From a virus (Duplodnaviria; Caudoviricetes), in the IMG/VR virus record IMGVR_UViG_2548876929_000003, positions 4,825-68,824 of that record: a stretch of DNA of 64,000 nucleotides. One strand, written 5' to 3'. Shown piece by piece: positions 1-51,562 of this stretch. Below the pieces are notes generated by a model. That model was not told where the DNA came from, did not search any database, and was given only the letters and a program-made list of their open reading frames with translations. A program made the translations under genes and the position numbers. Each line of letters begins with the position of its first letter. Position 1 is the first letter of the stretch.

Positions 1-734
1 TTGTAATCAAGTGAATGTTTAAGTAAATTTGCTGTGATGTCTCCGTACTTCTTTCGAGCTATAGGAACAGCTACTAATATAAATGCTTTACGATCAGGAT
101 AATGTATTACAGCATCTGTTGAATTCTTTACCTTCTCTACGCCTCGCACCCAAGTTTTTTCTAGTTCTACCATCGGATTTTCAAACGGAAAAGTATTATT
201 TCCTGCATACACTAACATATTCTTACTATATGCACCTTCCAGTACTTTTTGCGAGACATCAGACTGATCATTTTCTCTTGTTTCCTTAGGTTCTAACTGA
301 GGACTGTATTGAATTTTTCCCAATTTATCTTCTTTTTGTTTTAAAACAAGTTCAAACTCAAGGATCTCTTTGCTGGTATCAATCTGTTCTTGATACTTAT
401 CTACATAAGCGTGTGTTAACGTAATATCTCGGATAGTGTTTTCATTTCTAACGATTTGGATATTACATTTGCGATAGTAATCCTCACTATCAGGTTTATA
501 TTCTGTCTTTGCCCATGTATACAGCATGTTGGATTTATCCGCATTGTCTATAACTGAAGGAAGCGAATGAAGCGGAATTTTGCTTCGGATATGTAGCGAA
601 TGAGTTAAGTTTGGAGACTTAGCTGAAAGGTTTATGGAACTATTATTCTTATAAGTAAAGCCAATGACCTCACCTTTTACAAACTCGATTGGTTCACCAC
701 CGGATTTGCGTTCTATTCTTAATAAAATGCTCAT
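1..734 (-). CDS. Partial ORF (runs off the left edge): Hcp/TssD-like tube-family N-terminal domain plus an unknown C-terminal extension
   Basis: Manual translation from ATG at 734 (RBS GAGGAG) is open to the window edge: MSILLRIERKSGGEPIEF...WAKTEYKPDSEDYYRKCIIQIVRNENTIRDITLTHAYVDKYQEQID...LVLKQKRDK. Missing from the ORF track because it has no stop in the window. Family call is from memory of the motif. Confidence 0.55.
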   Translation of the reverse strand, partial: MSILLRIERKSGGEPIEFVKGEVIGFTYKNNSSINLSAKSPNLTHSLHIRSKIPLHSLPSVIDNADKSNMLYTWAKTEYKPDSEDYYRKCNIQIVRNENTIRDITLTHAYVDKYQEQIDTSKEILEFELVLKQKEDKLGKIQYSPQLEPKETRENDQSDVSQKVLEGAYSKNMLVYAGNNTFPFENPMVELEKTWVRGVEKVKNSTDAVIHYPDRKAFILVAVPIARKKYGDITANLLKHSLDY

Positions 735-946
735 TGTAATAATCTCCTCTGTTAATTCAATCTAGTTTTGCAGGAAATATTTGTGAAAAACTAATTTCCA
801 AATATTAATATATACGAAAAATATTAAATAGTAAACATATTTTCAACATGGTAAAGGACGACAATAGAGTTTCGTAACCTCGGCAAATTATATGAAGAAG
901 CTAAAACGAAATATAAACCAGCTAACACAGACCTGTTAAAAATGAT

Positions 947-984
947 AAAAGCTCTGCCGACCAATTAAGGTTAGCAGAGCTTTT
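947..984. terminator. Bidirectional-type intrinsic terminator, repeat family A copy 1
   Basis: AAAAGCTCTGCCGACC-AATTAA-GGTTAGCAGAGCTTTT hairpin with A and T flanks. Confidence 0.75.
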
Positions 985-988
985 CAAT

Positions 989-2122
989 TTATTTAGAATA
1001 TTCATTTACTTCAAACGTTAGGATACGATCATACAGCATGTAGTCCTTACGGCTGCTGAACGGCCCTTTATTGTTATCATGTTTATTGATTGCATATGAA
1101 GCCGATCCAGAACCAGCCTGCTTGCTTTCATACCAAGAGATGAAATCATTGACCTCTTTCATGCTTAGGTCGAATTCCTTTTCCAAACCAGTTGTCATGG
1201 TGACTACCAGAATAGCACGGTTACCTGAAGGTGATTGAGGATTAGTAGGCTCACCAGTCGATGGTTCATCAGGATTTGTTGTACCAGGTTCGCTTGGATT
1301 AGTCGGTTCTTCTGGAGATGGATTGTCAGGAGTTGTCGGCTCAGTCGTTGAAGGCCCCGTTGGTGTAACTGAAGCTTCATTGGAAATCGATGTCTCAACA
1401 CCATTGAAAATAGCAACTATTTGAAAATAATAAGTTGTTCCATTTATCAAATTAGGAATCACATAGTTACCAGCCGCGTCTTTTTCTACAGAAATTGAAT
1501 CTGTATATTTATTAGGTTGTGTACCGTAATTAATTTTATAATTAGTAGCATCCTTGATTGTATTCCAACTTAATTTAGCAGATGAGTTCTGTGGTTGCCC
1601 CTTAAGATCAATTGCTTCCACCATGCCAATGGTTATCTCGTTAAATGCTAACCATGACGAACCTCCGTTAGCATCAATTTTTATACCATCATAGGTTCCA
1701 AGCTTCACCTTATCGGGTTGTGACGTTGTATATTTAGCAGTTAAAGAATGAGTTATTTGCTCACTTATTGGTGCCCACTTTCCACCTTCTAATCCATAAA
1801 TGGTGTATGAAATCTCTCTCGGTGGCGTAGCAGCAGTGGTAATATGAACGAAATTCATTTCGATTGGGCTAGGAAAAATTAATTCAATATCCCCTTTGAA
1901 TGTACTGGCATTCCAATACGTTCCGATGTCTCCGTCTATTGAATTTCCCGCCACATAGTTGCTATAAATACTGCTGGCTTTTGCAGTAGTTCCTTCTGGA
2001 GGTGAGAATCCAAGCATTCCTTTTACTGTTTTATTTAGTGCAGCTGCATGTGTTACAGACGGTAGTAACATAATGCTTACTAGTAAAAAAGTTAAAATCG
2101 TAGCCATAAATTTCTTCGACAT
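989..2122 (-). CDS. Secreted protein: discoidin (F5/8-type-C)-like domain, FN3 domain, Pro/Thr/Glu linker and conserved C-terminal domain
   Basis: Signal peptide MSKKFMATILTFLL...AHA after RBS AGGGGG (ATG 2122); SIDGDIGTYWNA; AKLSWNTIKDATNYKINYGT (FN3); PT/PS repeats. Confidence 0.75.
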   Translation of the reverse strand: MSKKFMATILTFLLVSIMLLPSVTHAAALNKTVKGMLGFSPPEGTTAKASSIYSNYVAGNSIDGDIGTYWNASTFKGDIELIFPSPIEMNFVHITTAATPPREISYTIYGLEGGKWAPISEQITHSLTAKYTTSQPDKVKLGTYDGIKIDANGGSSWLAFNEITIGMVEAIDLKGQPQNSSAKLSWNTIKDATNYKINYGTQPNKYTDSISVEKDAAGNYVIPNLINGTTYYFQIVAIFNGVETSISNEASVTPTGPSTTEPTTPDNPSPEEPTNPSEPGTTNPDEPSTGEPTNPQSPSGNRAILVVTMTTGLEKEFDLSMKEVNDFISWYESKQAGSGSASYAINKHDNNKGPFSSRKDYMLYDRILTFEVNEYSK

Positions 2123-2296
2123 GATTATTAGCCCCCTATGAATATCTTCTATATCCATAAAGATAGGTTAACACTCTCATATTGTCTAAACATAAACTTG
2201 CTGATCTATAAATATAATCTAAATATTTGCATATTTATTTTTTATTGGGTATGAAAAAGGACTCTATCAGCCAATACCCTGTAGAGTCCCTCACAC

Positions 2297-2725
2297 TTAT
2301 TTCACTATAAATTTTACCTTTGTTCCATCAGCATACTTATCTAGCTGATGACTTACCCATGATCCTGCTCCCCTGTTATCACTAGGGGTTATGTATCGAA
2401 TATCAGCACCTGCGCCACCTTCAGCACACATTGCCATTGGCCACTCGTCACGGTCATATCCTTTTTTAGTCGGATAACCCTTGAGTGACTCCTTCCTGTT
2501 TTCCTCGGCTCCATCTCTGTCAATCGTGCAAACGGAGGAATGTCCGGCTGCTATTGCATCTCTAATGTGCGCCCCGGTTTCAGGGTAACGTGAACTAGGG
2601 AACTCCAACGTATACCCAGCTGCTGCTTGTTGGTTGGTTGCTGCCAGTTCTGCATAGACACCTTGAACGGAAAAAATAGCAGCTAATAAAAATACGATTA
2701 ATCCTCTTGCGATCCCTTTTATCAT
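2297..2725 (-). CDS. NucA/NucB-family deoxyribonuclease, secreted (signal peptide)
   Basis: [34 protein letters not shown] and SDNRGAGSW motifs. Confidence 0.9.
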
Positions 2726-2959
2726 ATGACACCTCCATAGTATTTAAATCTTCTCTATACTAATTGGAGAGCCATATCGAAGTATCGCATAACTTGTCGC
2801 AAAACAAAAAAAAGACATTTCAGTTATAGTGAACTAGAGAGAGTAAAAATTAAAACCTACCATTAAACTTTATTTTGAATATTTAGACATAATTGTTTAG
2901 ACATTCCTTTTTGTTATTTGTATGCTTACTAAGCAAATAAACAAAAAGGGGATTTATAC

Positions 2960-3826
2960 ATGAAAAGAAAGCTCAATTTAATTTTATGCTTCACTTTACT
3001 TATTACCATTTTCCTCCCATTGTCATCAGTGAGTGCCTACACTGGTGGTTATGCCAACGGAAAAAGTGTTGATGCAATGATTCCTGATATATATTTTATA
3101 GGGAGATCCCATGCAAGCACAACGAGTACAACGCTTATTACAGATAACAATGAAGAAACAAGTTACTTACTTCCTAAAGATAAGATGATTATGATTGATT
3201 TAGGTACAGATAGAACTATTGATTCATATAAGCTTAAAGGCGATTTAAAGCCTATGAGAATAAACTTTTATAATCGAAGTACAGGTTATGAAGATGCATT
3301 TGAAGCCAATGTAGGTGATGGAAATCTCAAAACGCTTCCTAAGGAAAAAATAGTACGTAATGTAAGATTCATCACTTTATACACTATGAGTGGTGAAGAC
3401 ATAAATATAAGCGAACTCGACTTTTTTAACAGTAACGACATAGTACCAGCGCCCGAACCTTCTCCAACACCAGATCCTAAACCGACACCTGAACCAACGC
3501 CGACACCAAATCCAACACCAAGTCCTGAGCCTAATCCTTCTGACCCTACGGAGCCAACTGAACCATACGAACCATCACAACCTACTGGTGACCGTGCTAT
3601 TCTGACAGTAACGATGGACAATGGATTTGATAAAGAATTCGATCTAAGTAAAAAAGAACTCAATGCATTCATCGCTTGGTATGACGCTAAAGATGCTGGC
3701 AGAGGCCCATCATTCTTTGCCATTGATAAGCACAATAATAACAAAGGTCCATTCAGTACCCGTAAGGACTATGTAATATTCAATAAAATCCTTACGTTTG
3801 AAGTAAGCGAGTATTCAACTAAATAA
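2960..3826 (+). CDS. Secreted protein: discoidin-like domain, PEP/PTP linker and the same C-terminal domain as 989..2122
   Basis: Signal peptide; ITDNNEETSY...IDLGTDRTIDSYKL; PT repeats; C-terminus GDRAILTVTMDNGFDKEFDLS...KILTFEVSEY. Confidence 0.75.
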   Translation: MKRKLNLILCFTLLITIFLPLSSVSAYTGGYANGKSVDAMIPDIYFIGRSHASTTSTTLITDNNEETSYLLPKDKMIMIDLGTDRTIDSYKLKGDLKPMRINFYNRSTGYEDAFEANVGDGNLKTLPKEKIVRNVRFITLYTMSGEDINISELDFFNSNDIVPAPEPSPTPDPKPTPEPTPTPNPTPSPEPNPSDPTEPTEPYEPSQPTGDRAILTVTMDNGFDKEFDLSKKELNAFIAWYDAKDAGRGPSFFAIDKHNNNKGPFSTRKDYVIFNKILTFEVSEYSTK

Positions 3827-3848
3827 ACTACAAAGGACTCCATACTGG

Positions 3849-4082
3849 TTACATACCAGCGGAGTCTTTTTTCACATCTACTCTAAATTCAAACTGATTA
3901 CGAAAGAAATAAGTTCCGTTAATTTTAATCGACTCCGGTGTGTATTTTTCGACCGGTCCGCCGTAGTCCACGATATCTATCAAATCCTCATCCAACGACT
4001 GAACAACGTACACTCTTGCTAGACTTAATGCAGCTGCAAATAGTTCTATATCCGACTTTAACACTTTATATGTATAGTTCAT
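3849..4082 (-). CDS. Small hypothetical protein (MNYTYKVLKSD...)
   Basis: ORF track; RBS GAGGTG before ATG 4082; terminator hairpin just downstream (3833-3870). Confidence 0.6.
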   Translation of the reverse strand: MNYTYKVLKSDIELFAAALSLARVYVVQSLDEDLIDIVDYGGPVEKYTPESIKINGTYFFRNQFEFRVDVKKDSAGM

Positions 4083-4137
4083 GCTGATCACCTCAGATAG
4101 TTATTCTGTTGTATGTGTGGTAATTCCTGCACTAAAG

Positions 4138-4170
4138 AAAGCCCTACCAACTATAAGGTTGGCAGAGCTT
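4138..4170 (-). terminator. Intrinsic terminator, repeat family A copy 2, ending the receptor-peptide operon
   Basis: GCCCTACCAAC-TATAAG-GTTGGCAGAGC, similar to 947-984 and 6986-7026. Confidence 0.65.
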
Positions 4171-4175
4171 AAGCT

Positions 4176-4298
4176 TTAAAATCCTCCAATGGTAACGTTA
4201 GGCTGAATACTATGGTGGTGGTTAAAGGCTTGATCCGCCCCAGTAAAAATAAACAAAAAGCTAACCGCGATGGTCAGAAGTACAATTTTTCTCAACAT
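4176..4298 (-). CDS. aloP: Signalling pro-peptide 2 (40 aa, MLRKIVLLTIAVSFLFIFTGADQAFNHHHSIQPNVTIGGF)
   Basis: Manual translation; RBS GAGGAG; basic N-terminus, hydrophobic core, polar C-terminal tail; downstream of an RRNPP receptor. Symbol is family-level. Confidence 0.75.
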   Translation of the reverse strand: MLRKIVLLTIAVSFLFIFTGADQAFNHHHSIQPNVTIGGF

Positions 4299-4323
4299 TG
4301 GTCATCCACTCCTCAAACAGGGT

Positions 4324-4443
4324 TCAGGCCCCACCAATTGGATCATAGTATGGAGTAACCTGATGGCTATTCGACTGAACAGGTACAGTAACAATAAACA
4401 AAAAACTAGCTGCAATGATTAGCAGTACCATTTTTTTTAACAT
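4324..4443 (-). CDS. aloP: Signalling pro-peptide 1 (39 aa, MLKKMVLLIIAASFLFIVTVPVQSNSHQVTPYYDPIGGA)
   Basis: Manual translation; start overlaps the 3' end of the receptor gene; signal-peptide architecture. Symbol is family-level. Confidence 0.75.
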   Translation of the reverse strand: MLKKMVLLIIAASFLFIVTVPVQSNSHQVTPYYDPIGGA

Positions 4444-5821
4444 TGTCTAACCACACCTTCTCAATGAATTTTGAGTATTTTTCCTTTGTTTCGGGAATTG
4501 CATGAGTGCGGAAATGCTCAAACATTCCTACACAGTTTAAATAATAAGTCTCATTATTCAATGTATGAAAATTTTCCAAAGAATACATCAAATATTTAAA
4601 ACCATCTTCGTAAGAACCTTGATGTAAATAATAGTAAGCCAGCTCATAACCCAAACGCGCATACTGCTCTGGTATAACTTGTTTCGTATACATATCCGTT
4701 GATGGCTGTTGCACAAAAGAAGCAATAACCGTTTCAAACCGTTTAATTATATCATTAACGTCTAACTTATATTGGTTAGCTGCAAACATTACGTTCAAAA
4801 GCTTTACAATCATTTCCTTATCGACTTTATCACTTGATGCAATAATATATTGAACATAATCGTTTAGCACGCTTATATCTCCAGATAAAAGCTTATATAC
4901 GTACGTGTTACCTTCTGCCCAGTTTTGGAACAAACCTATCCAGTGTTGGGTGTACTCGTCCTTCTCCAAAACCCAATCTAAACTAGCGTAGGCGTATGTA
5001 TACTGGAGAGCTTGGTGGTAATCGCCTTTAGCTTCGCAAGAACCTGAACACAACAAATCAGCATAAGCAATGTACACAAACAGTGGACGACTTAGTTTCT
5101 TGGAAGACTCATCACACATTCGACTCTGGTGTTGATGTTTCATCGAATATTGGATTTCCGCCTTAGCTCTCATTTTTCGAGCTACTTCCTCAACCTTGTC
5201 CCATTTACGCAATGACCTGTACACGTTAGCTAAATCCTTCAGCGCGTCAAGCTGTTCCATTTCATCCAGACGTTCCACAAAGGGTTCAAGTAGCGTTGCT
5301 GCCTCGAGATTACGGCTTTGATCCTCTCCAACTTGAATTGTGAATATACGATATTGGCAGATTGCCAAACGTTCAGAATGTTGATATCTCTCTGTTTCAG
5401 CCACCCCCTCATAGAGCACCAATGCTGCCGCATTTTTTCCCTGCGCCAACAATCCTTCTGCAATTTCAAATAGCTTGGGTGAATACAGTAGATTGTCCAT
5501 GATGGCTCCCACCACTCGACGGATTGCATCCAACCTGTCTAACTCCGCACAGCGAAACAAAAACGGCTCGATTCGCCTCATATTTGGAGGATGATCGATG
5601 ATGTAGTTTTCTATAAACAGATCGTAAAACTCCCCTTCTGGTAAACCCATAGCCTCAGTGATTAAGTCAAGTTGGTTAACAGACATAGACTTATTCCCTG
5701 ACACAATAGCACTTATTATTCCCCTATTCATGCCTGCAAGTTGTCCAAATTGCGCTAAGCTCAAACCCTTTTGTTCTAAATATCTGTCTAATTCTGCTCT
5801 AATCGTAGGTGTATGCTTCAT
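4406..5821 (-). CDS. aloR: RRNPP-family peptide receptor/regulator (XRE HTH plus TPR-like helices), AloR-like
   Basis: N-terminal HTH (KGLSLAQFGQLAGMNRGIISAIVSG); helical repeat body; followed by pro-peptide ORFs; likely start MKHTPTIRAEL at 5821 after GGAAGGTG. Confidence 0.8.
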   Translation of the reverse strand: MKHTPTIRAELDRYLEQKGLSLAQFGQLAGMNRGIISAIVSGNKSMSVNQLDLITEAMGLPEGEFYDLFIENYIIDHPPNMRRIEPFLFRCAELDRLDAIRRVVGAIMDNLLYSPKLFEIAEGLLAQGKNAAALVLYEGVAETERYQHSERLAICQYRIFTIQVGEDQSRNLEAATLLEPFVERLDEMEQLDALKDLANVYRSLRKWDKVEEVARKMRAKAEIQYSMKHQHQSRMCDESSKKLSRPLFVYIAYADLLCSGSCEAKGDYHQALQYTYAYASLDWVLEKDEYTQHWIGLFQNWAEGNTYVYKLLSGDISVLNDYVQYIIASSDKVDKEMIVKLLNVMFAANQYKLDVNDIIKRFETVIASFVQQPSTDMYTKQVIPEQYARLGYELAYYYLHQGSYEDGFKYLMYSLENFHTLNNETYYLNCVGMFEHFRTHAIPETKEKYSKFIEKVWLDNVKKNGTANHCS

Positions 5822-6093
5822 ATCATATCCACCTTCCACACAGAAATTCCAAAACTTTTTATTATTGCATTCTATTGTTGTCCATAATTTAACAGTTGTC
5901 AATAAGTTTTGAAATTTTTGTCATTCGATATTTGACTAAATTATATTTTTTGAATATTGTCGACTACTGTAAGACAAATAGTTCTATAGTGTCATTTTCC
6001 ATTTAATTATTTAAAACACACAAATTATTCCTTATTTTGTGGTACACTGGATTGGTAGTTCAAAATAATACTATTTCGAGAGGACGGTTTTGG

Positions 6094-6702
6094 ATGAAGT
6101 TAAAGAACACAGCAATCATTCTTTCAGGTGTATTGGCTCTTACAGCAGTTGCTCCAATTGCAGCATCTGCTGAATCATCCACAGAACAAATCACACAAAA
6201 TTCAAGTTCAAGTGTAACTCAAAAGAGTGCAGTTGAGGCAGTAAAACCCTATGTACAAGTTAAGGATGGGGTATTATCCCTAAAAGACGTTCCTGAAAGT
6301 ATTTATAACCAGTATAATTTATCGGATTTGCAAAAGCATTTTGATGAATTAAATGAGTTATCAAAATCAGGTAAAATTACTGTTAATAGCGATTTAAGCA
6401 TAAAGGACAATACCATCTCGCTTAATGCAGAATACGGATCCTGGACCTACCATTGGTGGGGATATGATCGGAAATTCACTGACTCTCAAACTAAACAAGC
6501 GATAGATTACTATAATAGTGTGGCAGGTGGCGGCGCACTCGTTTCAGGGGCAACTGCTTGGTATCCTCCTGTTTCAGGTATTTCAGGATCAGTCGCAGGA
6601 TACTTTGCATTGTTTGCAGCACGTATGAGCGCTAATAACAATGGTAACGGAGTTTATGTTTCTGTTTCATGGGCGGCAGTGTTTGATGTTGAACCTTTGT
6701 AA
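6094..6702 (+). CDS. Secreted protein with Gly/Ala-rich C-terminal domain, putative large bacteriocin-like protein
   Basis: Signal peptide MKLKNTAIILSGVLALTAVAPIAASA; C-terminal HWWGYDRKF...VAGGGALVSGATAWYPPVSGISGSVAGYFALFAA. Confidence 0.5.
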   Translation: MKLKNTAIILSGVLALTAVAPIAASAESSTEQITQNSSSSVTQKSAVEAVKPYVQVKDGVLSLKDVPESIYNQYNLSDLQKHFDELNELSKSGKITVNSDLSIKDNTISLNAEYGSWTYHWWGYDRKFTDSQTKQAIDYYNSVAGGGALVSGATAWYPPVSGISGSVAGYFALFAARMSANNNGNGVYVSVSWAAVFDVEPL

Positions 6703-6724
6703 TACGACACAGTAAGGAGACTCT

Positions 6725-6889
6725 ATGACCAGTATTTTAGCTGTTTTAGTGATTATTTGGGGAATAAGTTATATGGCTGTCTACTACATTAAGAAGAAAA
6801 AAAATACACACGGACAACCTGGTTATAAAATATTCTTTATGGTTATTCTTGTTATTTTAGCAATCGCTTTGGTTAGTTCATATTTATAA
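6725..6889 (+). CDS. 54-aa two-TM membrane protein, putative immunity protein
   Basis: Manual translation MTSILAVLVIIWGISYMAVYYIKKKKNTHGQPGYKIFFMVILVILAIALVSSYL; RBS AAGGAG; terminator at about 6912-6938. Confidence 0.6.
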   Translation: MTSILAVLVIIWGISYMAVYYIKKKKNTHGQPGYKIFFMVILVILAIALVSSYL

Positions 6890-6985
6890 TCAAACAATTT
6901 TATGATTTTTATAGCCTTCCTTTAATGGAGGGCTTTTATATTACATACCAAATCTTTTGGTGTAAATCCCATATTAGTAATGACA

Positions 6986-7026
6986 AAAAGACTCCCCGCC
7001 GACCGATTAAGGTTAGCGGAGAGTTT
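6986..7026. terminator. Intrinsic terminator, repeat family A copy 3
   Basis: ACTCCCCGCCGACC-GATTAA-GGTTAGCGGAGAGT. Confidence 0.7.
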
Positions 7027-7476
7027 CTATTTCACGATAAATTCAACTTTTGTCCCATCTGCGTAGTCATCCAGCTTGTGACCTACCCACGATCCAGCTC
7101 CACGATTATCCTTTGGACTTATGTACTTAATGTCTGCACCGTCTCCACCTTCGGAGCACATCGCCATAGGCCACTCGTCACGGTCTTTGCCTTTTTTAGT
7201 GGGTACACCTTTCAGAGATAGTTCACGGTTATGGTCTGCCCCTTCACGGTCAATGGTGCATACTGATGACTTTCCGGCTGCAATGGCCTCCTTGATGTGT
7301 TGTGCTGTTTCGGTGTAACGGTCTGACGGGAATTCCAGCTTGACCGTATCGGCAGATACCTGTGTTACAGCTACGGGTACCGATTCGTGTTTTGTTGTCT
7401 TCGTCTTAGCTGTCTCTTGTACACTGCATCCAGCTAATAGGATTGTTATTAACACGGTAAAAATCCATTTAAACAT
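7027..7476 (-). CDS. NucA/NucB-family deoxyribonuclease, lipoprotein
   Basis: Lipobox LLAGC; [15 protein letters not shown] and KDNRGAGSW motifs; paralog of 2297..2725. Confidence 0.9.
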   Translation of the reverse strand: MFKWIFTVLITILLAGCSVQETAKTKTTKHESVPVAVTQVSADTVKLEFPSDRYTETAQHIKEAIAAGKSSVCTIDREGADHNRELSLKGVPTKKGKDRDEWPMAMCSEGGDGADIKYISPKDNRGAGSWVGHKLDDYADGTKVEFIVK

Positions 7477-7500
7477 ATGTATTCCCCCCCTATAAAACAG

Positions 7501-8049
7501 AAAAACACCCCACCGGCTTGAGCCAGCGGAGTGCTACCGATGCTTTCGGATTTATATAGAAAGTATATACCGCTTGGTTGATTCTGTAAATATCCTGATG
7601 ACCTTACGCTACTACGCGTTCTACCCAGTCCCAAGTACCTTGGCTTGTTACTTTGATTTTATCCCCTACGACAAAAAGGCCGTATTTATCGTCCCTAACT
7701 ATAATTTCTTTGCGCTCATTATTTTCGAACTCGCAGGTTATATAGAATGTTTTTGAAGACGATCCTTCGGTCCAATTAACTCGTTTATCAACCACTTCAC
7801 CTATCCGTTCTATTTTCGGTTGTTTACGATTTTTTCTGGCTGTAATATCTGCACCTATGACCACTGAAAGAATAAGTCCCACTACCAAAGCTGAAAGAAT
7901 CCAAAAGACCATCTATAATCCTCCTAAATATTCATTCGTTGGTAATTATGATATCGGCTTTTCAACTGTTTATTTTGATAGCCAATGAAAATCAATAAAA
8001 AAATACCCCACCAGCTATGCCAGCAGGGTATCACCGATGCTTTCGGATT
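7501..8049. repeat. ~50-bp imperfect direct repeats (7501-7552 and 7998-8049) flanking one gene
   Basis: Both copies have a CCCCACC.GCT..GCCAGC.G.GT hairpin plus the identical 17-mer ACCGATGCTTTCGGATT. Confidence 0.8.
7604..7912 (-). CDS. DUF2500-like membrane protein
   Basis: N-terminal TM helix; FYITCEFENNERKEIIV..DKYGLFVVGDKIKVTSQGT pattern. Confidence 0.65.
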   Translation of the reverse strand: MVFWILSALVVGLILSVVIGADITARKNRKQPKIERIGEVVDKRVNWTEGSSSKTFYITCEFENNERKEIIVRDDKYGLFVVGDKIKVTSQGTWDWVERVVA

Positions 8050-8097
8050 GCACAACGGTGCTTCCGTATGTGTTGTTAACAGTATTGACAAAATTAT

Positions 8098-8865
8098 TCA
8101 AACACTACATTGCTTTAATACATCATCACTAATTAAGCAGTGTTCTAAACATTTTTTTTCTAGTTCTTCTAAATCACTATCCCAGATTCCCTTATAGATC
8201 ATATGTTTCTTGATATCGTAGTAATTTTCATCACTAAACAGGGCATAAGAGCATGTAGCACTATACTCTGATTCTGATTGGCAAGAATTTAATAGGTTAT
8301 GCACCTTACATATCAATTCATTCTGATCTTCAATTGCCTGAGTTCCATTTGTCTTCTCAATCCATTTCACCAGTATATCCAAGGTTTCGGACACTTGATT
8401 ACCTATTTTGAATCTAGGCAACATAAGACGTTCAGAATCATTTAACTGTAAAATCCGAACAGTTCTCTTTCCAATTTCGTCCTTGCTAAAAAAACGATAA
8501 TTTTTGATAAATAAGTGCTGGCTTGGTTCATCGATTGTAGGATTTATGATTGGTTCGTGTTTCGTATCGTGATCTCTCTTTAAACCGTTACATCGTTTAC
8601 ATATTGGTAGAAGATTGAGCCAATCTACAACTTCATATGGGTATAAGGACTTGGGATGAAAATGTTCTACCTCAATATATTTACTTTCTTCGCCCAGTTT
8701 GCATTCACAAAAAATACACTTATCATGGCTCATTGCTAATAATGCTTTTTTAATATAATCTTGATTCCAAACATTTCTTTTAGTTTTCAAATATTCTTCG
8801 GTTAGTTCTTTTACTTTTTCATTAGTCATTTGATGTGGAGGAAAAGTTCTTGTAATTTTTATCAT
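8098..8865 (-). CDS. ptuB: HNH endonuclease, Septu PtuB-like
   Basis: CIFCE...EVEHFHPKSLYP..VVDWLNLLPICKRCN; directly downstream of an ABC-type ATPase. Confidence 0.75.
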   Translation of the reverse strand: MIKITRTFPPHQMTNEKVKELTEEYLKTKRNVWNQDYIKKALLAMSHDKCIFCECKLGEESKYIEVEHFHPKSLYPYEVVDWLNLLPICKRCNGLKRDHDTKHEPIINPTIDEPSQHLFIKNYRFFSKDEIGKRTVRILQLNDSERLMLPRFKIGNQVSETLDILVKWIEKTNGTQAIEDQNELICKVHNLLNSCQSESEYSATCSYALFSDENYYDIKKHMIYKGIWDSDLEELEKKCLEHCLISDDVLKQCSV

Positions 8866-8868
8866 AAT

Positions 8869-10020
8869 TCACCCTAAGGAACCCAATTGGAGTTCATATA
8901 CCTTCCTCATTGGACTTCGTGGATGTAGCATTTTATTTAAAACATCGAATAACTCCCTTGCTTGTTCAATATCTTCATTATCTAGAGCATGTTCAAATTT
9001 ATTTTTAATTTCCAAATATTTATTTGACCTTGTTTCCTTCAAACCCATAACATCTTCCAATATTTCTTCGACTGTCCAGCCTTTAAATCCATACTCAGAT
9101 TTAAATAGATCCAGTTTAAATACCTCACCTTCTTCATCAATGCCAAGAGCAATAAGTTCTTCAGTATTTGCCTCCTGAATCATATGTGGACTATGAGTAG
9201 TAATAATAATTTGTGCATTTGTGAACGTATTTCTAAGTGCATCAACAAATGGTCCTTGCCAGTAAGGATGCAAATGGGCATCTGCTTCATCGATTAGAAT
9301 GATACCATCGAAATCCGAAACTCTAACTTTGGGCGTCATATTGAATTCGATTTCTTTAATTAGACCCAATAAAATAAATAAGGTTGACTTAAAGCCAGAG
9401 GATAAATATTCAAAATAAACTTTACCTCTCGGTGTGTTTACTATGGTGTCTAGTGTTGAATGATCTATATGAGAGTATGTAACATTTTGATCAAGTAATG
9501 AAAAACATTTCTTAGCAGAAGATAAGTTAAATAATTCCGCTTCAGAAAGATGTCCTTGTGGCTCGAACAAAATTCTGTTACTTAACCAAGTCTTTATCGT
9601 CTCTCCCCGCATCCCATTTATGAAATTACGTTGGTAAATTCTTGAATCTCTTTCCTCATCTGAACGTATTCCATCCACTTTTTGATATTCGAGTTGTCTT
9701 TGGTCTTTTATATAGATCACTTTCAAAGCCTCTTCAAAAATTAAACTATAGACTATTTGCGACTCATTAGGCATAAATGACTCAGTATTGAAAACATTTT
9801 CTTCCCCATCAATTTTCACTTTCCATACACCTTTATCAACCCTAGAATTACGTTTCAATTTTCCAGAATTCCCAAAACTAAATGCATGGACAATACATTC
9901 CAAAATAGTACTCTTTCCTACCCCATTCATTCCACAAATAATATTTAATCTATCATTAAAAGAGACATCAAGTTCTTTTATACCACCTATATTTTTAATA
10001 GATACTGAATCAACCTTCAT
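8869..10020 (-). CDS. ptuA: ABC/AAA ATPase, Septu PtuA-like
   Basis: Walker A GMNGVGKS, signature LSSG, Walker B ILIDEADAHLHP, H-loop ITTHSP; start ATG 10020 after AGGGAGG. Confidence 0.8.
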   Translation of the reverse strand: MKVDSVSIKNIGGIKELDVSFNDRLNIICGMNGVGKSTILECIVHAFSFGNSGKLKRNSRVDKGVWKVKIDGEENVFNTESFMPNESQIVYSLIFEEALKVIYIKDQRQLEYQKVDGIRSDEERDSRIYQRNFINGMRGETIKTWLSNRILFEPQGHLSEAELFNLSSAKKCFSLLDQNVTYSHIDHSTLDTIVNTPRGKVYFEYLSSGFKSTLFILLGLIKEIEFNMTPKVRVSDFDGIILIDEADAHLHPYWQGPFVDALRNTFTNAQIIITTHSPHMIQEANTEELIALGIDEEGEVFKLDLFKSEYGFKGWTVEEILEDVMGLKETRSNKYLEIKNKFEHALDNEDIEQARELFDVLNKMLHPRSPMRKVYELQLGSLG

Positions 10021-10069
10021 AATAGTTCCTCCCTTGTTTAAAAGGATTATACCACAAAATCCCACTCTG

Positions 10070-10291
10070 CTATCCCAAAACATAAGTTTCAAGCAGTTCA
10101 TTCTTAGACATAATCTTACAGCGATTTATCCATCCTTCATCAGTATCTTTTTCCATTGGACCAATAAGTATTGTATCTCCGTTTGAACTAACTGCATACA
10201 AAATTTTTCTCTTTCCAGTTCTTTTATGCACCACAATGACATTTGGAACTGAGTAGGATACAATTAATTTTTCTAATTCATTCAAATTCAT
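10070..10291 (-). CDS. 73-aa hypothetical protein upstream of ptuA
   Basis: ORF track; RBS GGAGG before ATG 10291. Confidence 0.6.
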   Translation of the reverse strand: MNLNELEKLIVSYSVPNVIVVHKRTGKRKILYAVSSNGDTILIGPMEKDTDEGWINRCKIMSKNELLETYVLG

Positions 10292-10566
10292 CGCCTCCAT
10301 TAATAAAGTGTATTTTTTGGAGCATAAAAAATGACAAGCCCAAATACGAGTGGACTTGCCATTCTATAATTATAATTGGGATAAGCATATTTATTGTGGG
10401 TTTTCGGGATGATTTTAGAACGGACTCGGGATAGTTTAAGAAATCCCCTAACAATTCTAGTACCATTTAAACTTTAATCCCTTGGCCTATACCTAGCTTC
10501 AAAAACAGCATGCGTACCTTGCTAACAGCGCGGGCAGCCATCTATATCTCATATATAGCATCTCTA

Positions 10567-11109
10567 TTAAGTGAGTACAGGCGTTTGAGCCACTATGTTT
10601 GGAACTTTTACTGGTTCAGTTGCCCCACTTGCCACGGTATCTCCTTCAGTAGCTTGAGAAAGAATAGCCGTAACTTGTGCAGCTAAAGAAGAGACAGCTT
10701 CCTTAGCTGCGGCCTGTGTCGCCTCTTCACTTGGCTGAGCTTCGGTAGTCAGCACTGTCTTTGTCTTAGCCTTATACTCCAGATATGCCTTCTCAATTGC
10801 AGACCTTAACTCTACTTGGGAAACTGTAATGCCCTGACTGGTAAGAGTAAGTGAAGCATACTGCAAAGCCTCCTGAAGCTTACGCTCTCCCCCTGCCTGC
10901 TTAAAAGCTGTCTGAGCAAAAGCAAATCCTTCCCCAGCGATCTTATGAATTACTTCCCTCTGTGCTGCCGTTGTACGCGCTTCTAGCCACACGTTAACTT
11001 TAGTCTTGAGTTTGTTCAGACCTCCTAAAACAAACGCTGTAAGCACACCCGCAGCGGCTGTGACAATGGTATTTACATAAGGCTGTACAGTTTCGATAAT
11101 GGTTTGCAT
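10567..11109 (-). CDS. Phage holin, LL-H-like family
   Basis: Single N-terminal TM; AFAFAQTAFKQAGGERKLQEA...IEKAY pattern; follows the endolysin. Confidence 0.7.
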   Translation of the reverse strand: MQTIIETVQPYVNTIVTAAAGVLTAFVLGGLNKLKTKVNVWLEARTTAAQREVIHKIAGEGFAFAQTAFKQAGGERKLQEALQYASLTLTSQGITVSQVELRSAIEKAYLEYKAKTKTVLTTEAQPSEEATQAAAKEAVSSLAAQVTAILSQATEGDTVASGATEPVKVPNIVAQTPVLT

Positions 11110-11111
11110 GA

Positions 11112-12062
11112 TTATTTATCCCCTTTCGTTTTCAACGATGCGATTTTATTTTTTGAATCCCAGGACACTACAGCGCCGTATGCCTCCGCAACGGGTCTTA
11201 GCTGCACATATGCCACTCCTTCGACCAGTTGGATAAATTGCAGCTTGGCTCCATTTAAAAAAGCGACCTTGAGACTGGTGTCCCAATGACACGATAAGCC
11301 CAACACAGTAGCAAGCACACGCAGCGGAACATACGTCCTGCCACTAAAGAGCAACGTCTTCCCTACCTGTTTGCCATTTGCGATGAACGTACCGGACGTG
11401 ACTGTCTCCGGCTGCTCAGGGCGCTTTGTGAAACGTTCACGCAGCTCGTCCGCCGTACCATCATACTCATTCATATCCACGTTCCCTTTTATCCCTGCTA
11501 CCTTGCCGCTATCGCTATATTGCCAAATATCCCAACGTTTCCACGTCACTGTATCGCTTGGGACGCGAGTATCACTATACCGGGCTATCCATAGTGGGTA
11601 ACCGCCCAATGAGGCGTTAAAATTAGCTGCGAATGCATTGCCTGTATAGATAATGGGCTTGCGTCCTGTAAGTCTCTCCAGCTCAAGCAGGAAGGCCAAA
11701 GCTACAGCACTAATAAGTGTTTTGGACAAGTTGCCGGGATTGTTTTCATAGTCCATCACCGGAGGAAGGTCCAACGCTTTAGCGCCTCCAACCTGGTCCA
11801 ACACATCAGCAAAATGCTTTGCTTCTACTTTTGCTGCGTCAACGTTGGTTGCATCTAGGAAATGGTATGCTCCCAGCAATACACCTGCTTCCTTGGCCCT
11901 TTTGGCATTTGTAATGAATGTCGGATCAACATAACGTTGCCCCTGGCTGGCCTTGATGAAGGCAAATGAAACACCATCTGCCTTAACCGCCTTCCAATCA
12001 ATCTTACCTTGATATCTGGATACGTCGATCCCTCTTGCATTACGGCTGTTTCGTCGTTGCAT
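11112..12062 (-). CDS. Endolysin: GH25 muramidase plus copper-amine-oxidase-N-like cell-binding domain
   Basis: GIDVSRYQG, FIKASQG, PPVMDYE, WQYSDSG..GIKGNVDMN; C-terminal GRTYVPLR. Confidence 0.9.
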   Translation of the reverse strand: MQRRNSRNARGIDVSRYQGKIDWKAVKADGVSFAFIKASQGQRYVDPTFITNAKRAKEAGVLLGAYHFLDATNVDAAKVEAKHFADVLDQVGGAKALDLPPVMDYENNPGNLSKTLISAVALAFLLELERLTGRKPIIYTGNAFAANFNASLGGYPLWIARYSDTRVPSDTVTWKRWDIWQYSDSGKVAGIKGNVDMNEYDGTADELRERFTKRPEQPETVTSGTFIANGKQVGKTLLFSGRTYVPLRVLATVLGLSCHWDTSLKVAFLNGAKLQFIQLVEGVAYVQLRPVAEAYGAVVSWDSKNKIASLKTKGDK

Positions 12063-12492
12063 CTTCTTTCTCTCCTTCCTTACCACTCTTACTTTTCAAA
12101 ACTTCTACGGCCTGTCGGATCACTGGCGGGATAGGTGCGCCGAGTCTGCCGCCATTCTCCAAAATGGACAAAAGCTCATTTGCCATATAAAAATAGGCGA
12201 CCGCATCCCGGAATAGGTGCGAATCGCCTAAGACTCCATCAATTAGATGGGATACTGCTACCATCGTAAAAATAAATACCTTTCGAGCGATACCAATAAG
12301 ACCGATCTTACTTTTTAAACCAGGTCCGGTACCCTTCTTACCTTCTGCGCCAGCCGCAAATAATCCGGTCACATAATCAATAACGACTAGAGCAAGTAAC
12401 ACCCCCAATACTCCCGACCACCCACCGTAAAAATACGTCACAGCGCTACTTCCTAAAGCAGTGCTGAACTTAAAAACCTCCCACTTATCCAC
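12040..12492 (-). CDS. Phage holin (holin-4 / toxin-secretion family)
   Basis: VIDYVTG, ARKVFIF, NELLSILENGGRLGAPIP; likely GTG start at 12492 after GGGGGA. Confidence 0.9.
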   Translation of the reverse strand: MDKWEVFKFSTALGSSAVTYFYGGWSGVLGVLLALVVIDYVTGLFAAGAEGKKGTGPGLKSKIGLIGIARKVFIFTMVAVSHLIDGVLGDSHLFRDAVAYFYMANELLSILENGGRLGAPIPPVIRQAVEVLKSKSGKEGEKEDATTKQP

Positions 12493-12514
12493 CTTGCTTC
12501 CCCCGTCTCTTCGT

Positions 12515-12736
12515 TCAGGAAACTTTTCCTGAGCTATCATCGTCTGTTTTCTGTTCATTTTCTTCCTGGGCCTGCATCTCTGCTAATGCATTTCCTACTG
12601 CCATATCCAAACCTATAAGTATTTCTTTCCGTCGTGCTGGCTGTGAAGCAATTACAGCAGAAATGACCTCAGTCAAATCCTCAACAGGTCTGGTTAGATC
12701 CAGTTGTATATCCAATGTGGATTTTATCTTTGCCAT
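12515..12736 (-). CDS. Small phage hypothetical protein
   Basis: ORF track; RBS GGGAGGTG before MAKIKSTLDIQ. Confidence 0.7.
   Translation of the reverse strand: MAKIKSTLDIQLDLTRPVEDLTEVISAVIASQPARRKEILIGLDMAVGNALAEMQAQEENEQKTDDDSSGKVS
12516..12531. promoter_or_regulatory. Palindrome CAGGAAA-NN-TTTCCTG upstream of the holin
   Basis: Perfect 7-2-7 inverted repeat that recurs elsewhere in the window. Confidence 0.6.
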
Positions 12737-12775
12737 GGGTTTTATCACCTCCCTCAGACACAAAAAAAGACACCT

Positions 12776-13546
12776 TTAGTTTGCAGATGCCTGTAATTGT
12801 TCCTTATTATAAATTCTCACAAGCCATTCACGGCCTAATTGAGTAAATCTACGGTGATAGATCACTTTTCCGTTATCAAGAACTTCTTGTTTGATTTCAA
12901 CATATCCGCAATCCGCATATCGGCTATAAAGCAGCCAAGTGTCATTTTGTCTGAATTGAATCTTACGACTCCCTAAATCATTATTCAGAGCAATTGCCGA
13001 CTTGAATCCAAGTTCCTTTGCAATCTCCGTAGCAGTATAGGTCTTGTTAACGTGCATCAGAATTGCATTTGTTCTTTCAGCCTCTACTCTGGCAGCGCGC
13101 TCCTCTTTGAGTTTAGTCAAGAGTTCAATTCCGAAGTCAGGATTGTTTAGTATTTTATCCATTACGTCATCCGTTGCATAAACACCATGTTTTTGGATCG
13201 AAGGAAGGATATCTTCATATAACCAATCTTGGAACGTCTCAGCCTTGGATTGACCAGATTGTCCAAGTACACGATTCAAAGCAAAACTTGTAATAAAAGC
13301 CTCTCCTGCATTATTCATTTTTCGGACATTCCGATTCAGAATGTCCGAATTCTTCACTCGATATATATGAGATTCTTTACAGAATTTCAATACATTATTA
13401 GTCGCTTTTTCTCCTCGGTACTCTAGGATTGTAGCAACGTCTTTTGCACTTATTAAAAAATCACCTTTGAATTCAATTCCTACATCCTCCCTTGTCAGTA
13501 TTGTCACTTCATGCTGATTTTCAAAAACAGCTAAACCATTATTCAT
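12776..13546 (-). CDS. Phage antirepressor (BRO-N-like plus KilAC/ANT-like C-terminal domain)
   Basis: FQDWLYEDILPSIQKHGVY; TATEIAKELG; FTQLGREWL. Confidence 0.85.
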   Translation of the reverse strand: MNNGLAVFENQHEVTILTREDVGIEFKGDFLISAKDVATILEYRGEKATNNVLKFCKESHIYRVKNSDILNRNVRKMNNAGEAFITSFALNRVLGQSGQSKAETFQDWLYEDILPSIQKHGVYATDDVMDKILNNPDFGIELLTKLKEERAARVEAERTNAILMHVNKTYTATEIAKELGFKSAIALNNDLGSRKIQFRQNDTWLLYSRYADCGYVEIKQEVLDNGKVIYHRRFTQLGREWLVRIYNKEQLQASAN

Positions 13547-13825
13547 GCTTTATCACTCCTATAATTTATTTGAGACGCAAAATAAGCCCCTGAGTTATCA
13601 GAGGCTTTCATACTTATATCTTAAATTGGTTCTGCTGCTATAACGCTGCGGATTTTAGAAGGAATTATTGATCGGTAAATATAAAGTTGTAGACAGACAA
13701 TGCGATTAGTTAATGGGCAGGATAGTTGAGTAATGAGTTAGTTAAATGATTTGAGTATACGAATGGTACAACTGTAAATGTGACCTTACTTTGGTAACCA
13801 ACATTAAAAGGCTCTTGAAAGCCTT

Positions 13826-14086
13826 TTAATGTACAAAGGATTTTATTCTTTTCATAATATTATCACCATTAGTAGTAAACAAAATGTAAGTTTGAGAACT
13901 GGTTTTTATAACAACACGATCGGTGGTTCCGTAAGGAGTGCCTATTCTTATGGCGTTTCTTACCTCTCCCCCGTAAGTATTATCATTAGAAACGTCTTTA
14001 ATATCAGATAGCGGAATTACCGTTTTAGATAACTGCCAAGTTATTACTAATTTTTCTTCTATTTCTTTTACATCAATTCCTAACAT
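13826..14086 (-). CDS. SunI/YnzG-like (bacterial PH-domain) protein
   Basis: WQLSKTVIPLSDI..V..DNTYGG....IRIGTPYGTTDRVVIKT motif. Confidence 0.7.
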   Translation of the reverse strand: MLGIDVKEIEEKLVITWQLSKTVIPLSDIKDVSNDNTYGGEVRNAIRIGTPYGTTDRVVIKTSSQTYILFTTNGDNIMKRIKSFVH

Positions 14087-45067: not shown

Positions 45068-45113
45068 TACTCTAACAACAAATAAAGACCGCAAAGGCTT
45101 AAGCCCTTACGGT

Positions 45114-45752
45114 CTAATTTACTTCTGGCATCCTCAGCCCAATTTCTCCTTCTTGGTTTCGCCCCCGGCCATAGTCTATGGTGACAAAATCCAATGTACG
45201 GTTTGTTTTTAGGCTGTTTGCTATGTTGACAATAAGCCTACGCCGTTTATCTGCAAATGTAGTCGCTGAGATAGGAGGAATGTCCTTGCGATAACCTTTT
45301 TCCAAATATTGTTGAGCTTTGAGATATTTCATACCATCCAAAAATAACAGCTTTGCTATCAATCCCTCGTGCTTATCACGCATATTATTTATTGCAAACT
45401 TAATGTTATTCGTAAGGAATTGATAGAATTTATAATTCACATGTCGCTGGTCTTTGAGTAGCACGGCATTTGCTGTCACATCTGCTGTCAGTTCTTGCCC
45501 CGAGACTCGCTTAGCAACCGATCCCTCTGCCGAAAGCAAATCATATGCAGCCATGCCGTTTTCCAATTGTTGAAGTGAGTATTCATAGTTTTTGATTACA
45601 TCAATTAAGTCAGTATATTTGTTTAGCAGCCACTTTGTTTTTCTTATATCTACTACATCTACATCGTCAAAGAAGTTTACTTGGATTATCTTCTGTGTAT
45701 CAGTAGCATCCTCTTCTTTGTTACGTATAACTACAGAATGTCCGTTTACCAT
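45114..45752 (-). CDS. ArpU/RinA-like late transcriptional activator
   Basis: Last early gene before the packaging module; helical C-terminal region (LIAKLLFLDG...TFADKRRRLI); followed by a terminator. Confidence 0.6.
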   Translation of the reverse strand: MVNGHSVVIRNKEEDATDTQKIIQVNFFDDVDVVDIRKTKWLLNKYTDLIDVIKNYEYSLQQLENGMAAYDLLSAEGSVAKRVSGQELTADVTANAVLLKDQRHVNYKFYQFLTNNIKFAINNMRDKHEGLIAKLLFLDGMKYLKAQQYLEKGYRKDIPPISATTFADKRRRLIVNIANSLKTNRTLDFVTIDYGRGRNQEGEIGLRMPEVN

Positions 45753-50537: not shown

Positions 50538-50640
50538 GCTGTTCCCTCCTTCTTATCCCCTGGGCCTGTCCTCTCTGCCCTTGGGGGCTATACTTTCCAT
50601 CGTTATTTTTTGGTATAATTTATTTAAAGGAGTTGATAAA

Positions 50641-50865
50641 ATGCTTGGTTTCATACTTATACTTTTTGCAATTATTTTTTTCGCGCTTGGTATTTTAAGT
50701 AAACGAAATCCCACTTGGGGATGGCGTGCAAACGAAGCCTGGAAGATCAAAGGTGACTCAGAACCAAGTGATGCATACATTAATGACATGAAATTTAGAG
50801 GCTCTGTATCTATTCTCTTTGGTTCCTTCTTTTTAGTATGTGGACTTTTGGTTATATTCCTGTAA
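50641..50865 (+). CDS. DUF6199-like small membrane protein (moron)
   Basis: RBS AAAGGAG before ATG 50641; NPTWGWRANEAWK..DSEPSDAY. Confidence 0.7.
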   Translation: MLGFILILFAIIFFALGILSKRNPTWGWRANEAWKIKGDSEPSDAYINDMKFRGSVSILFGSFFLVCGLLVIFL

Positions 50866-50881
50866 GATCCAATACCCTTTA

Positions 50882-51562
50882 TTAATCATCAAAATACCCA
50901 TATCCAAAAGGCACTTGCTGTTTAGCTGAAGCCCCTAAAATATCGTTTATCATGTTTTCGAAAACAGAAATCTCTTTTTCATCCATAGCTTCCAGCAAGT
51001 GTACTTCCTTAACCTTCAAAGATCGGCCTGCCGCTGTAGTAAGTAGTTCCATAACTGGTTTTATAGATTCCAGATGTTCCTTTTTTTCGGCTTCTACGCG
51101 CTTACTCGCCGCCTGTTTGCGGTTGTACTCTTCCCAATCTTGTTCATCGAACCAAAAATGATCTCCGTATTTGTCTCGGAAAGCTGAAATCCAGAATTGC
51201 AGCAGCTCCTCATTTGTTTGTATCCGATCATGACACGGCCAACAGAGCCTCAATCCGTTTGTCTTCACACCGCGCCCTTTTCTCCCGCGCGGATATACAT
51301 GATGGGTGGTCGTAGCCTCGGCGGCTTTACAGCATTCGCAGATTCCATTTGAATCGGCAATCAACTCCGCGATTACATCCTTTGAGAATTCGCCGCGCTC
51401 CTTGGTATTAGGCCGTGACTGGTGATGAGAGAGAATGTCTTTCTTCCATTCAGGAACAATTTTTTTATCCTTTTTCCGTTGTCCAAGGCTGTTGTAAGTC
51501 TTCTTTTGCTTTTGCTTTTGCTCCGGCTTCCAAAATGTTTGATGGGACATTCCCCTCGCCAC
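50882..51562 (-). CDS. HNH endonuclease-domain protein
   Basis: CECC......HHVYPR......NGLRLCWPCH. Confidence 0.8.
   Translation of the reverse strand: MARGMSHQTFWKPEQKQKQKKTYNSLGQRKKDKKIVPEWKKDILSHHQSRPNTKERGEFSKDVIAELIADSNGICECCKAAEATTTHHVYPRGRKGRGVKTNGLRLCWPCHDRIQTNEELLQFWISAFRDKYGDHFWFDEQDWEEYNRKQAASKRVEAEKKEHLESIKPVMELLTTAAGRSLKVKEVHLLEAMDEKEISVFENMINDILGASAKQQVPFGYGYFDD

Follow-up and report, generated by a model that had tools for sequence, protein, structure and literature searches.

Two pro-peptide genes behind one receptor gene

The sequence analysed here, referred to as the window, is a 64,000-nucleotide (nt) stretch of the IMG/VR provirus record IMGVR_UViG_2548876929_000003 in which phage structural genes are present, and our subject is a compact cassette on its minus strand that encodes a receptor of the RRNPP type and two small pro-peptides. 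Translation of the receptor open reading frame (ORF; 4406-5821) yields a 471-residue protein that resembles helix-turn-helix (HTH)-tetratricopeptide repeat (TPR) receptors, and its gene is referred to as aloR20. The final 38 nt of this gene are overlapped by the first pro-peptide ORF (4324-4443), which encodes 39 residues and ends in the tail ...YYDPIGGA. A 25-nt spacer (4299-4323), which contains the ribosome-binding site of the gene that follows, separates it from the second pro-peptide ORF (4176-4298), which encodes 40 residues and ends in ...NVTIGGF. Both pro-peptides begin with a Lys/Arg pair followed by a hydrophobic stretch, each ORF has a Shine-Dalgarno-like motif 10 nt before its ATG, and an xIGGx core is common to the C-terminal ends of both tails. 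A single strong terminator-like hairpin (4139-4170; 13-bp stem with 6 G-C pairs and a T-rich tail) follows the second ORF as the predicted intrinsic terminator of the aloR-aloP-aloP unit, and there is no hairpin between the two pro-peptide ORFs. Upstream of the receptor gene lies a candidate sigma-70-like promoter (5874-5902, TTGACA-17-AACAAT, 10/12 consensus positions), which is a consensus match only, and beyond the terminator lies p80 (3849-4082), a conserved 77-residue gene found downstream of the Alo cassettes of this superclade and a putative regulated output; all of these features are on the minus strand.

Two different pro-peptide genes lie behind one RRNPP/Alo receptor in one apparent operon. 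This layout, a receptor followed by two pro-peptide ORFs with different tails and a single terminator, had been proposed in an original prediction made from the window's letters alone, and it is borne out by the translations and the hairpin search. The same prediction described the two signal regions as near-identical, but their identity is about 70%, as an eye count on the translations gave 15 matches in the first 21 residues. An NCBIfam scan found no family for the receptor or either peptide, and a PsbZ match that it returned for the first peptide was set aside and attributed to the hydrophobic helix alone. Inverted repeats that might serve as an operator were sought in the two promoter regions and none was found, and an Rfam scan of positions 1-14000 gave nothing relevant, just a sub-threshold small RNA match at 6001-6092.

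The cassette is an Alo20 system of the Paenibacillus polymyxa group

Residues 13-65 of the receptor match the Pfam domain HTH_3 (24.3 bits, cut-off 23), and its C-terminal part yields only a sub-threshold TPR_7 match (16.6 bits versus a cut-off of 27.9); most AloR TPR domains are reported to score below default thresholds (Voichek et al. 2020, PMC7425212). A search for relatives at E<=0.001 returned 801 candidates, of which the best is a P. polymyxa protein with 98% identity, and every named relative among the best 120 of the 801 matches is from Paenibacillus. Over its full length the receptor is 70-98% identical to catalogued AloR proteins, and the two pro-peptides, with 39 and 40 residues, fit the AloP size range of 32-50 residues, the adjacent position and the hydrophobic N-terminal helix. 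The cassette is an Alo20 quorum-sensing system of the P. polymyxa group.

The original prediction started from the premise that one Alo receptor is paired with one peptide gene, and this premise is contradicted by published data. In Table S1 of Voichek 2020 (PMC7425212) the Alo20 entries for the P. polymyxa strains Sb3-1 and CICC 10580 give both peptides under one receptor locus tag, and in the type strain ATCC 842 two peptide genes, AloP10 alpha and beta, lie behind one receptor and are both responsive in RNA sequencing (RNA-seq) experiments. AloP10 alpha and beta were both detected in culture supernatants, the beta fragments without the last 6 residues, and AloP9 of ATCC 842 was detected by mass spectrometry (PMC7425212); the last 19 residues of the second peptide described here are identical to those of that AloP9. 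The two-peptide layout is already catalogued in a published table, and the headline novelty does not hold. What our analysis adds is modestly new: a mosaic receptor, an apparently foreign second signal, carriage on a prophage bounded by att repeats, and a downstream gene with a predicted Sm-like fold.

The Sb3-1 locus is one of those that we surveyed (L035), and its receptor is 98% identical to that of the window. The Alo20 systems of Sb3-1 and CICC 10580 share with the window the receptor clade, the gene order and an identical first peptide, and the second peptide of Sb3-1 differs at one residue. However, in the published work these peptides are merely listed, with no discussion of two peptides per receptor, of their origin or of a prophage location, and the word 'prophage' is absent from its main text (PMC7425212). 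The phage DNA that adjoins the Sb3-1 cassette is a remnant, whereas the prophage around the window cassette is whole.

Alo10 of ATCC 842 offers a further parallel in layout, as one receptor is followed by two different pro-peptide genes and the spacer retains a stub of a receptor tail. Both Alo10 peptides are secreted and processed, and in strain J separate receptors are found for each of the tail types. Like the cassette studied here, Alo10 also occurs within IMG/VR provirus calls (L010 and L014). It differs in belonging to another receptor clade with different tails.

Tandem peptides and the cognate signal in related loci

Our survey covered 15 loci on viral contigs, 18 in species-representative genomes and 6 in the assemblies with the closest receptors. 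Two peptide genes are present in all six loci whose receptor is at least 88% identical to that of the window, so that tandem peptides are the norm for this receptor clade, which by its own terms counts against the original prediction. The first-peptide tail is invariant across all six. Elsewhere two peptide genes were seen in the Alo10 type (L010, L014) and in L017, and a single one in about 25 further loci. L035 and L036 share the whole first peptide with the window and L037-L040 share its tail, but the second slot varies, carrying ...NVTIGGF in the window, L035 and L036, and an Alo19-type ...QVQHGGA in L037-L040. Both ORFs are intact in three other genomes with receptors 88-98% identical to ours, and within the last 13 codons of the second peptide the window and L036 differ by two nucleotide changes only, both of them synonymous. 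Together with the published listing of both peptides, this conservation indicates that the two pro-peptide ORFs are more than chance reading frames.

A maximum-likelihood tree was built on receptor residues 201-471, the peptide-binding part. Receptors with a common first-peptide tail cluster with 97-100% support, and the window receptor groups with those of the five ...YYDPIGGA loci (support 99/97), with a sister taxon whose tail is ...HDPIGGF. The native receptors of ...NVTIGGF (L007, L009) and of ...QVQHGGA (L019, L021, L022) lie in the other main branch and are 61-65% identical to the window receptor over the same residues. Because the tail type of the first peptide tracks the peptide-binding clade of the receptor, the first peptide is identified, by covariation, as the putative cognate signal of AloR20 and the second as a foreign signal type. 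The original prediction had offered several functions for the tandem arrangement, namely dual input, an agonist/antagonist pair, or a peptide aimed at another receptor; the last fits best, as the second tail is that of AloP9, and AloR9 is 62% identical to AloR20 in the peptide-binding part. The strain distribution in Table S1 (PMC7425212) points the same way: the ...NVTIGGF peptide occurs with AloR9 in 6 strains or behind AloR20 in 2, never with both, and no Alo9 or Alo2 receptor is entered for Sb3-1. This pattern fits allelic replacement, and would make Sb3-1 a producer that has no dedicated receptor for the second signal.

Mosaic structure of the cassette

Sliding-window comparison with two other loci points to the origin of the second signal. 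Relative to the Alo9 locus L007, which lies in a sibling prophage, the window is 93-99% identical over 6200-5600 (the upstream gene, the promoter and the HTH end of the receptor), falls to 62-76% over 5200-4500, and rises again to 92-96% over 4240-4100; L007 has no counterpart of the window's first peptide gene. Relative to the Alo20 locus L037, the window is 93-97% identical over 5100-4400. The receptor protein is divided in the same manner: the first 90 residues match the Alo9 receptor of L007 at 99% identity, whereas residues 201-471 are 62% identical to that AloR9 and 89-99% identical to receptors of the ...YYDPIGGA type. Within the second peptide gene, the 13 differences from the aloP9 of L007 all lie at or before nt 61 and the final 62 nt are identical, placing a breakpoint near nt 60, and the 93 nt beyond the gene, which comprise the terminator and the p80 promoter, differ from L007 at 4 positions. 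The second peptide gene is accordingly a chimera with aloP9 as its 3' half, produced by recombination of paralogous Alo cassettes.

The spacer between the two peptide genes carries a further trace of these events. Positions 4299-4323 align with the last ~25 nt of aloR genes, including the peptide ribosome-binding site, so that the spacer resembles a relic of a receptor-gene 3' end, and the spacers of L037, L017 and L010 likewise match receptor-gene tails. These matches in the window and the three other loci suggest that the mobile unit is a receptor tail plus its peptide gene. As a whole, the cassette looks like an Alo9 locus that gained the specificity part of an Alo20 system by homologous recombination and retained the old peptide tail. 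Such an Alo9-type locus would have kept its HTH-coding end, the 3' half of its peptide gene, the terminator and the p80 promoter, and would have acquired the peptide-binding part of aloR20, aloP20, the receptor-tail stub and the 5' half of another peptide gene.

The cassette is carried by a prophage integrated at glnA

The original prediction raised the possibility that the cassette is prophage-borne, and this proved correct. At the right end of the window lies an integrase gene (62813-64000, plus strand; PHROG 1). In the genome that contains the window, 67 nt separate the integrase stop codon from glnA, and the integrase adjoins the glnA 3' end (loci L045 and L057 are exact matches to the window ends). 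In three other genomes (L048, L051, L053) the site is empty and glnA is followed directly by a DUF6199 gene, and the counterpart of this DUF6199 gene in the window's genome lies, with the genes that follow it, ~5 kb past the window's left end. Between glnA and DUF6199, the gene order in the window's genome runs from the integrase through the lysis genes and the cassette to a group of agr-like genes. A 49-nt direct repeat of the glnA 3' end bounds the element, with no third copy in the window: attL (L045:11755-11807) is located ~70 nt right of position 64000, and attR (L057:11974-12026) is ~190 nt outside the record, ~5.0 kb to the left of the first position of the window. The phage provides a new end for glnA, with one base changed before the stop. 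The element measures ~69.1 kb and the cassette lies inside it, ~9-11 kb from attR, in the arm that runs from the lysis genes to attR. Together, the att repeat and the empty sites place the cassette within a temperate prophage inserted at the glnA 3' end. In the provirus records of the window and of the sibling prophage G003, searched by themselves, no att repeat was found, as these records are trimmed at the integrase.

We also considered that the cassette might be host DNA misincluded in the provirus call, since in L037-L040 the same cassette type borders a gerA operon and phage genes are absent within 10 kb of it; this idea was dropped in view of the att repeat and the empty sites. A GerA search covering the window's record and those of five sibling proviruses gave no match.

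The integrase of G003 is 25% identical to that of the window, but its early genes, lysis genes and arm are shared at 84-97% identity, and it carries Alo9 where the window has Alo20. At the same position related prophages carry cassettes with the tails ...NVTIGGF, ...FDQVGGA, ...NATVGGS or ...FDQQGGA, or no cassette. This combination of a common arm and different Alo alleles shows that the arm travels with the phage and that its Alo locus is polymorphic. Sequenced virion genomes contain no close AloR and no close relative of the phage; the nearest proteins there are from Brevibacillus phages (26-27% identity), and the only close match in sequenced phages is a 2.5-kb lysis fragment of phiBP.

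The downstream gene p80

A homologue of p80 is found directly downstream of the receptor-peptide unit in most of the loci read. The gene has 140 homologues, none with a Pfam domain and often several per genome, and the named ones among the best 120 of these 140 matches are from the P. polymyxa group. An AlphaFold2 model of the protein (predicted local distance difference test score of 89) has a single helix and, after it, a small, bent beta sheet. Its seven top structural matches are Hfq proteins, with Z scores of 6.7-7.3 and root-mean-square deviations (rmsd) of 1.8-1.9 A over 54-57 residues (top match: Z 7.3, rmsd 1.8 A over 56 residues), and Sm/Lsm proteins come next. The predicted fold of p80 is Sm/Hfq-like, and a role in RNA binding is a lead, not a finding, since Z scores in this range can reflect merely a common arrangement of secondary structure.

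A proposed working model and its alternatives

Published work on Alo13 suggests how the cassette may operate, as in that system the receptor turns on the gene that lies after its peptide, an effect that the peptide undoes (PMC7425212). By analogy, AloR20 would bind DNA through its HTH domain and drive the adjacent p80, and the imported cognate peptide would bind AloR20 and switch it off. The cognate ligand would be the C-terminal part of the first peptide, probably a 6- to 8-mer. Both peptide genes would be co-transcribed with aloR20, and their products exported and processed. A lysogen would then emit its own signal and the Alo9 signal but respond solely to its own, speaking old and new while hearing new, and the second signal would act mainly on cells that bear AloR9, such as lysogens of sibling phages. 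On balance we consider it probable, by a modest measure, that the cassette is Alo20 cargo of a prophage in which the first peptide is cognate, the second is an Alo9 signal obtained by recombination, and the carrier emits two signals and hears one.

Read in this way, the locus suggests that specificity in the large Alo family is reshuffled by recombination between paralogous cassettes, in which DNA-binding ends, peptide-binding parts and peptide genes each move on their own, that such recombination can produce a strain that emits two signals and senses one, and that prophages are the carriers of the variable Alo systems of this superclade.

Several observations weigh against this interpretation and are considered here along with the alternatives that they favour. 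The status of p80 as the regulated target of AloR20 is an analogy, not a result. The assignment of binding specificity has covariation as its sole basis, and given the common xIGGx core AloR20 might also bind the second peptide. On this point turns the possibility of dual input, in which AloR20 would accept both mature peptides, be they two agonists that differ in affinity or an agonist and an antagonist, and would integrate two self-made signals. Besides the shared core, the two intact ORFs with identical ribosome-binding-site geometry in one operon are compatible with it, and Rap-Phr systems furnish precedents: several pheromones from one phage propeptide bind one Rap with different affinities (Felipe-Ruiz 2024, PMC11343458), and duplication and divergence of phr within a locus gives a promiscuous intermediate for shifts in Rap-Phr specificity (Even-Tov 2016, PMC5199041). 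Rap-Phr systems with duplicated pheromones resemble Alo20 in that an RRNPP receptor meets more than one pheromone of its own locus and in their presence on Bacillus phages. Alo20 is close to such intermediates in outcome and not in mechanism: the Rap-Phr copies are parts of a single propeptide that duplicated and diverged in situ, whereas Alo20 has two separate genes, one with a tail gained by recombination, and Rap is a phosphatase whereas AloR20 is an HTH regulator. The one-receptor, two-peptide layout also recalls PrgX of the Enterococcus plasmid pCF10, a single RRNPP receptor for which cCF10 and iCF10 compete; a difference is that these two have their genes on separate replicons, and they are known to act as antagonists at a single pocket. 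We regard dual input as unlikely, as the receptors native to the second tail rank with those least similar to AloR20 over the peptide-binding part, the second slot of L037-L040 holds another foreign tail although the peptide-binding part of the receptor is still 89% identical, and the 3' half of the second gene came by recombination rather than by co-evolution with AloR20.

Other observations favour a silent relic, in which the second ORF is a functionless recombination scar that is untranslated or unprocessed and is decaying. The chimeric origin of the gene is clear, and the second-slot genes of L037-L040 and L017 have lost one base in the run that encodes a Lys-Lys pair (A7 in place of the canonical A8), which shifts the canonical start. 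In these copies (L037:11525-11641; L017, about 4600-4720) the usual start meets a stop after 7 codons, and the sole remaining start is an upstream in-frame one with poor spacing; they could represent decay or a slippage-prone phase variation. Second slots can evidently decay, and they may accordingly be neutral relics. Of four sequencing runs compared with the cassette, the raw RNA-seq ones come from strains without this locus, and their reads that map to it are cross-mapping from paralogues, being 90-95% alike, with partial fit and loose ends. On the other side, the ORF, the Shine-Dalgarno motif and the signal region of the second gene are intact in the window, L035, L036 and CICC 10580, the changes between the tail codons of the window and L036 are synonymous only, and the analogous second peptide AloP10 beta is secreted and processed (PMC7425212), and for these reasons we consider a mere relic improbable as well.

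The preferred reading, of a prophage that emits two signals and hears one, can be carried further. The window would then come from a family of temperate P. polymyxa phages with a polymorphic Alo pherotype locus in the cargo arm, one member of which switched the specificity of its receptor and kept its old signal gene, so that its lysogens broadcast the AloR9 signal of their siblings without responding to it. This extension is speculative and we hold it doubtful at present; if true, it would amount to one-way jamming or manipulation between competing prophages, and to a natural snapshot of an intermediate in pherotype divergence.

The original prediction also suggested an arbitrium-like communication system. 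In such a system the phage would count lysogens or infections and bias the choice between lysis and lysogeny or its induction, with p80 in the place of AimX and the second peptide nudging AloR9-bearing siblings to lysogeny. The cassette does lie within an att-bounded prophage, the polymorphism of Alo alleles among related prophages resembles that of AimP, and the layout of receptor, pro-peptide and small downstream gene recalls the AimR-AimP-AimX order of SPbeta-like and B. cereus-group phages, a parallel remarked on by Voichek 2020 (PMC7425212); the AloR family has moreover been counted among those with phage or prophage members (Bernard 2021). Apart from the prophage location, nothing supports the idea, and such a role, possible but unsupported, strikes us as quite unlikely, as the Alo20 cassette occupies a post-lysis position in a cargo arm next to genes of nucleases and secreted fn3/discoidin proteins, a defence pair and agr-like genes, with ~57 kb between it and the cI/cro/integrase module in the prophage (>10 kb once circularised), has two peptide genes and shows no AimR family match in Pfam and PHROG scans (generic HTH and weak TPR only), and as the same cassette type resides beside gerA away from phage genes, the sole tested Alo system, Alo13, controls a host sporulation regulator (PMC7425212), and sequenced virion genomes hold no close AloR homologue. 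The position in the cargo arm argues against an arbitrium-like role without excluding it.

Other features of the element

The 15-kb arm that houses the cassette contains a Septu-like pair, two NucB-type nucleases, secreted fn3/discoidin proteins, a YolD-like gene and a group composed of AgrB, a small ORF and a LytTR protein. The lysis module at its border (10567-12558, minus strand) comprises a holin, an endolysin and a second holin, all recognised by PHROG matches, and is 87% identical to the lysis cassette of the Paenibacillus phage phiBP. Between the lysis genes and the cassette lies the Septu-like pair (8098-10101, minus strand), an ABC-type ATPase and an HNH nuclease (Pfam AAA_15/AAA_21 and HNH; PHROG 8323 and 16016). 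Paralogous genes for secreted DNases of the NucA/NucB type (2297-2725 and 7027-7476, both on the minus strand) flank the cassette, with ~70% DNA identity to nucB-like genes of SPO1-like Bacillus phages. The gene divergent from aloR20 (6037-6889, plus strand) contains a 221-residue ORF with no Pfam or PHROG match; it is 92-99% identical in sibling prophages with different receptors and is thus a fixed neighbour of the variable Alo locus.

The agr-type group lies left of the window (L043:696-1784; L057:10001-11089) and encodes AgrB, a 48-residue ORF in the AgrD position and a 131-residue LytTR-only protein, with an adjoining YolD-like gene. No histidine kinase was seen in the group, and the block is 94% identical in G003. 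It would be a second signal-production module on the same prophage.

Two observations touch on older integration events. In L037 a 58-nt tRNA-like element (9743-9800; Rfam tRNA, 30.2 bits, with no call by ARAGORN) is located between the gerA operon and aloR20. It occurs in genomes where the cassette has no adjoining phage, copies are found near the Alo loci L021, L022, L026 and L038, and it may be the remnant of an old att site. Finally, two segments of the window's early region (45075-45617 and 50574-51140) show 74-90% DNA identity, in the same order, to the DUF6199 gene and a 108-residue ORF that follow glnA at the empty sites, and from this resemblance the attB flank may itself contain a remnant of an older, related prophage.

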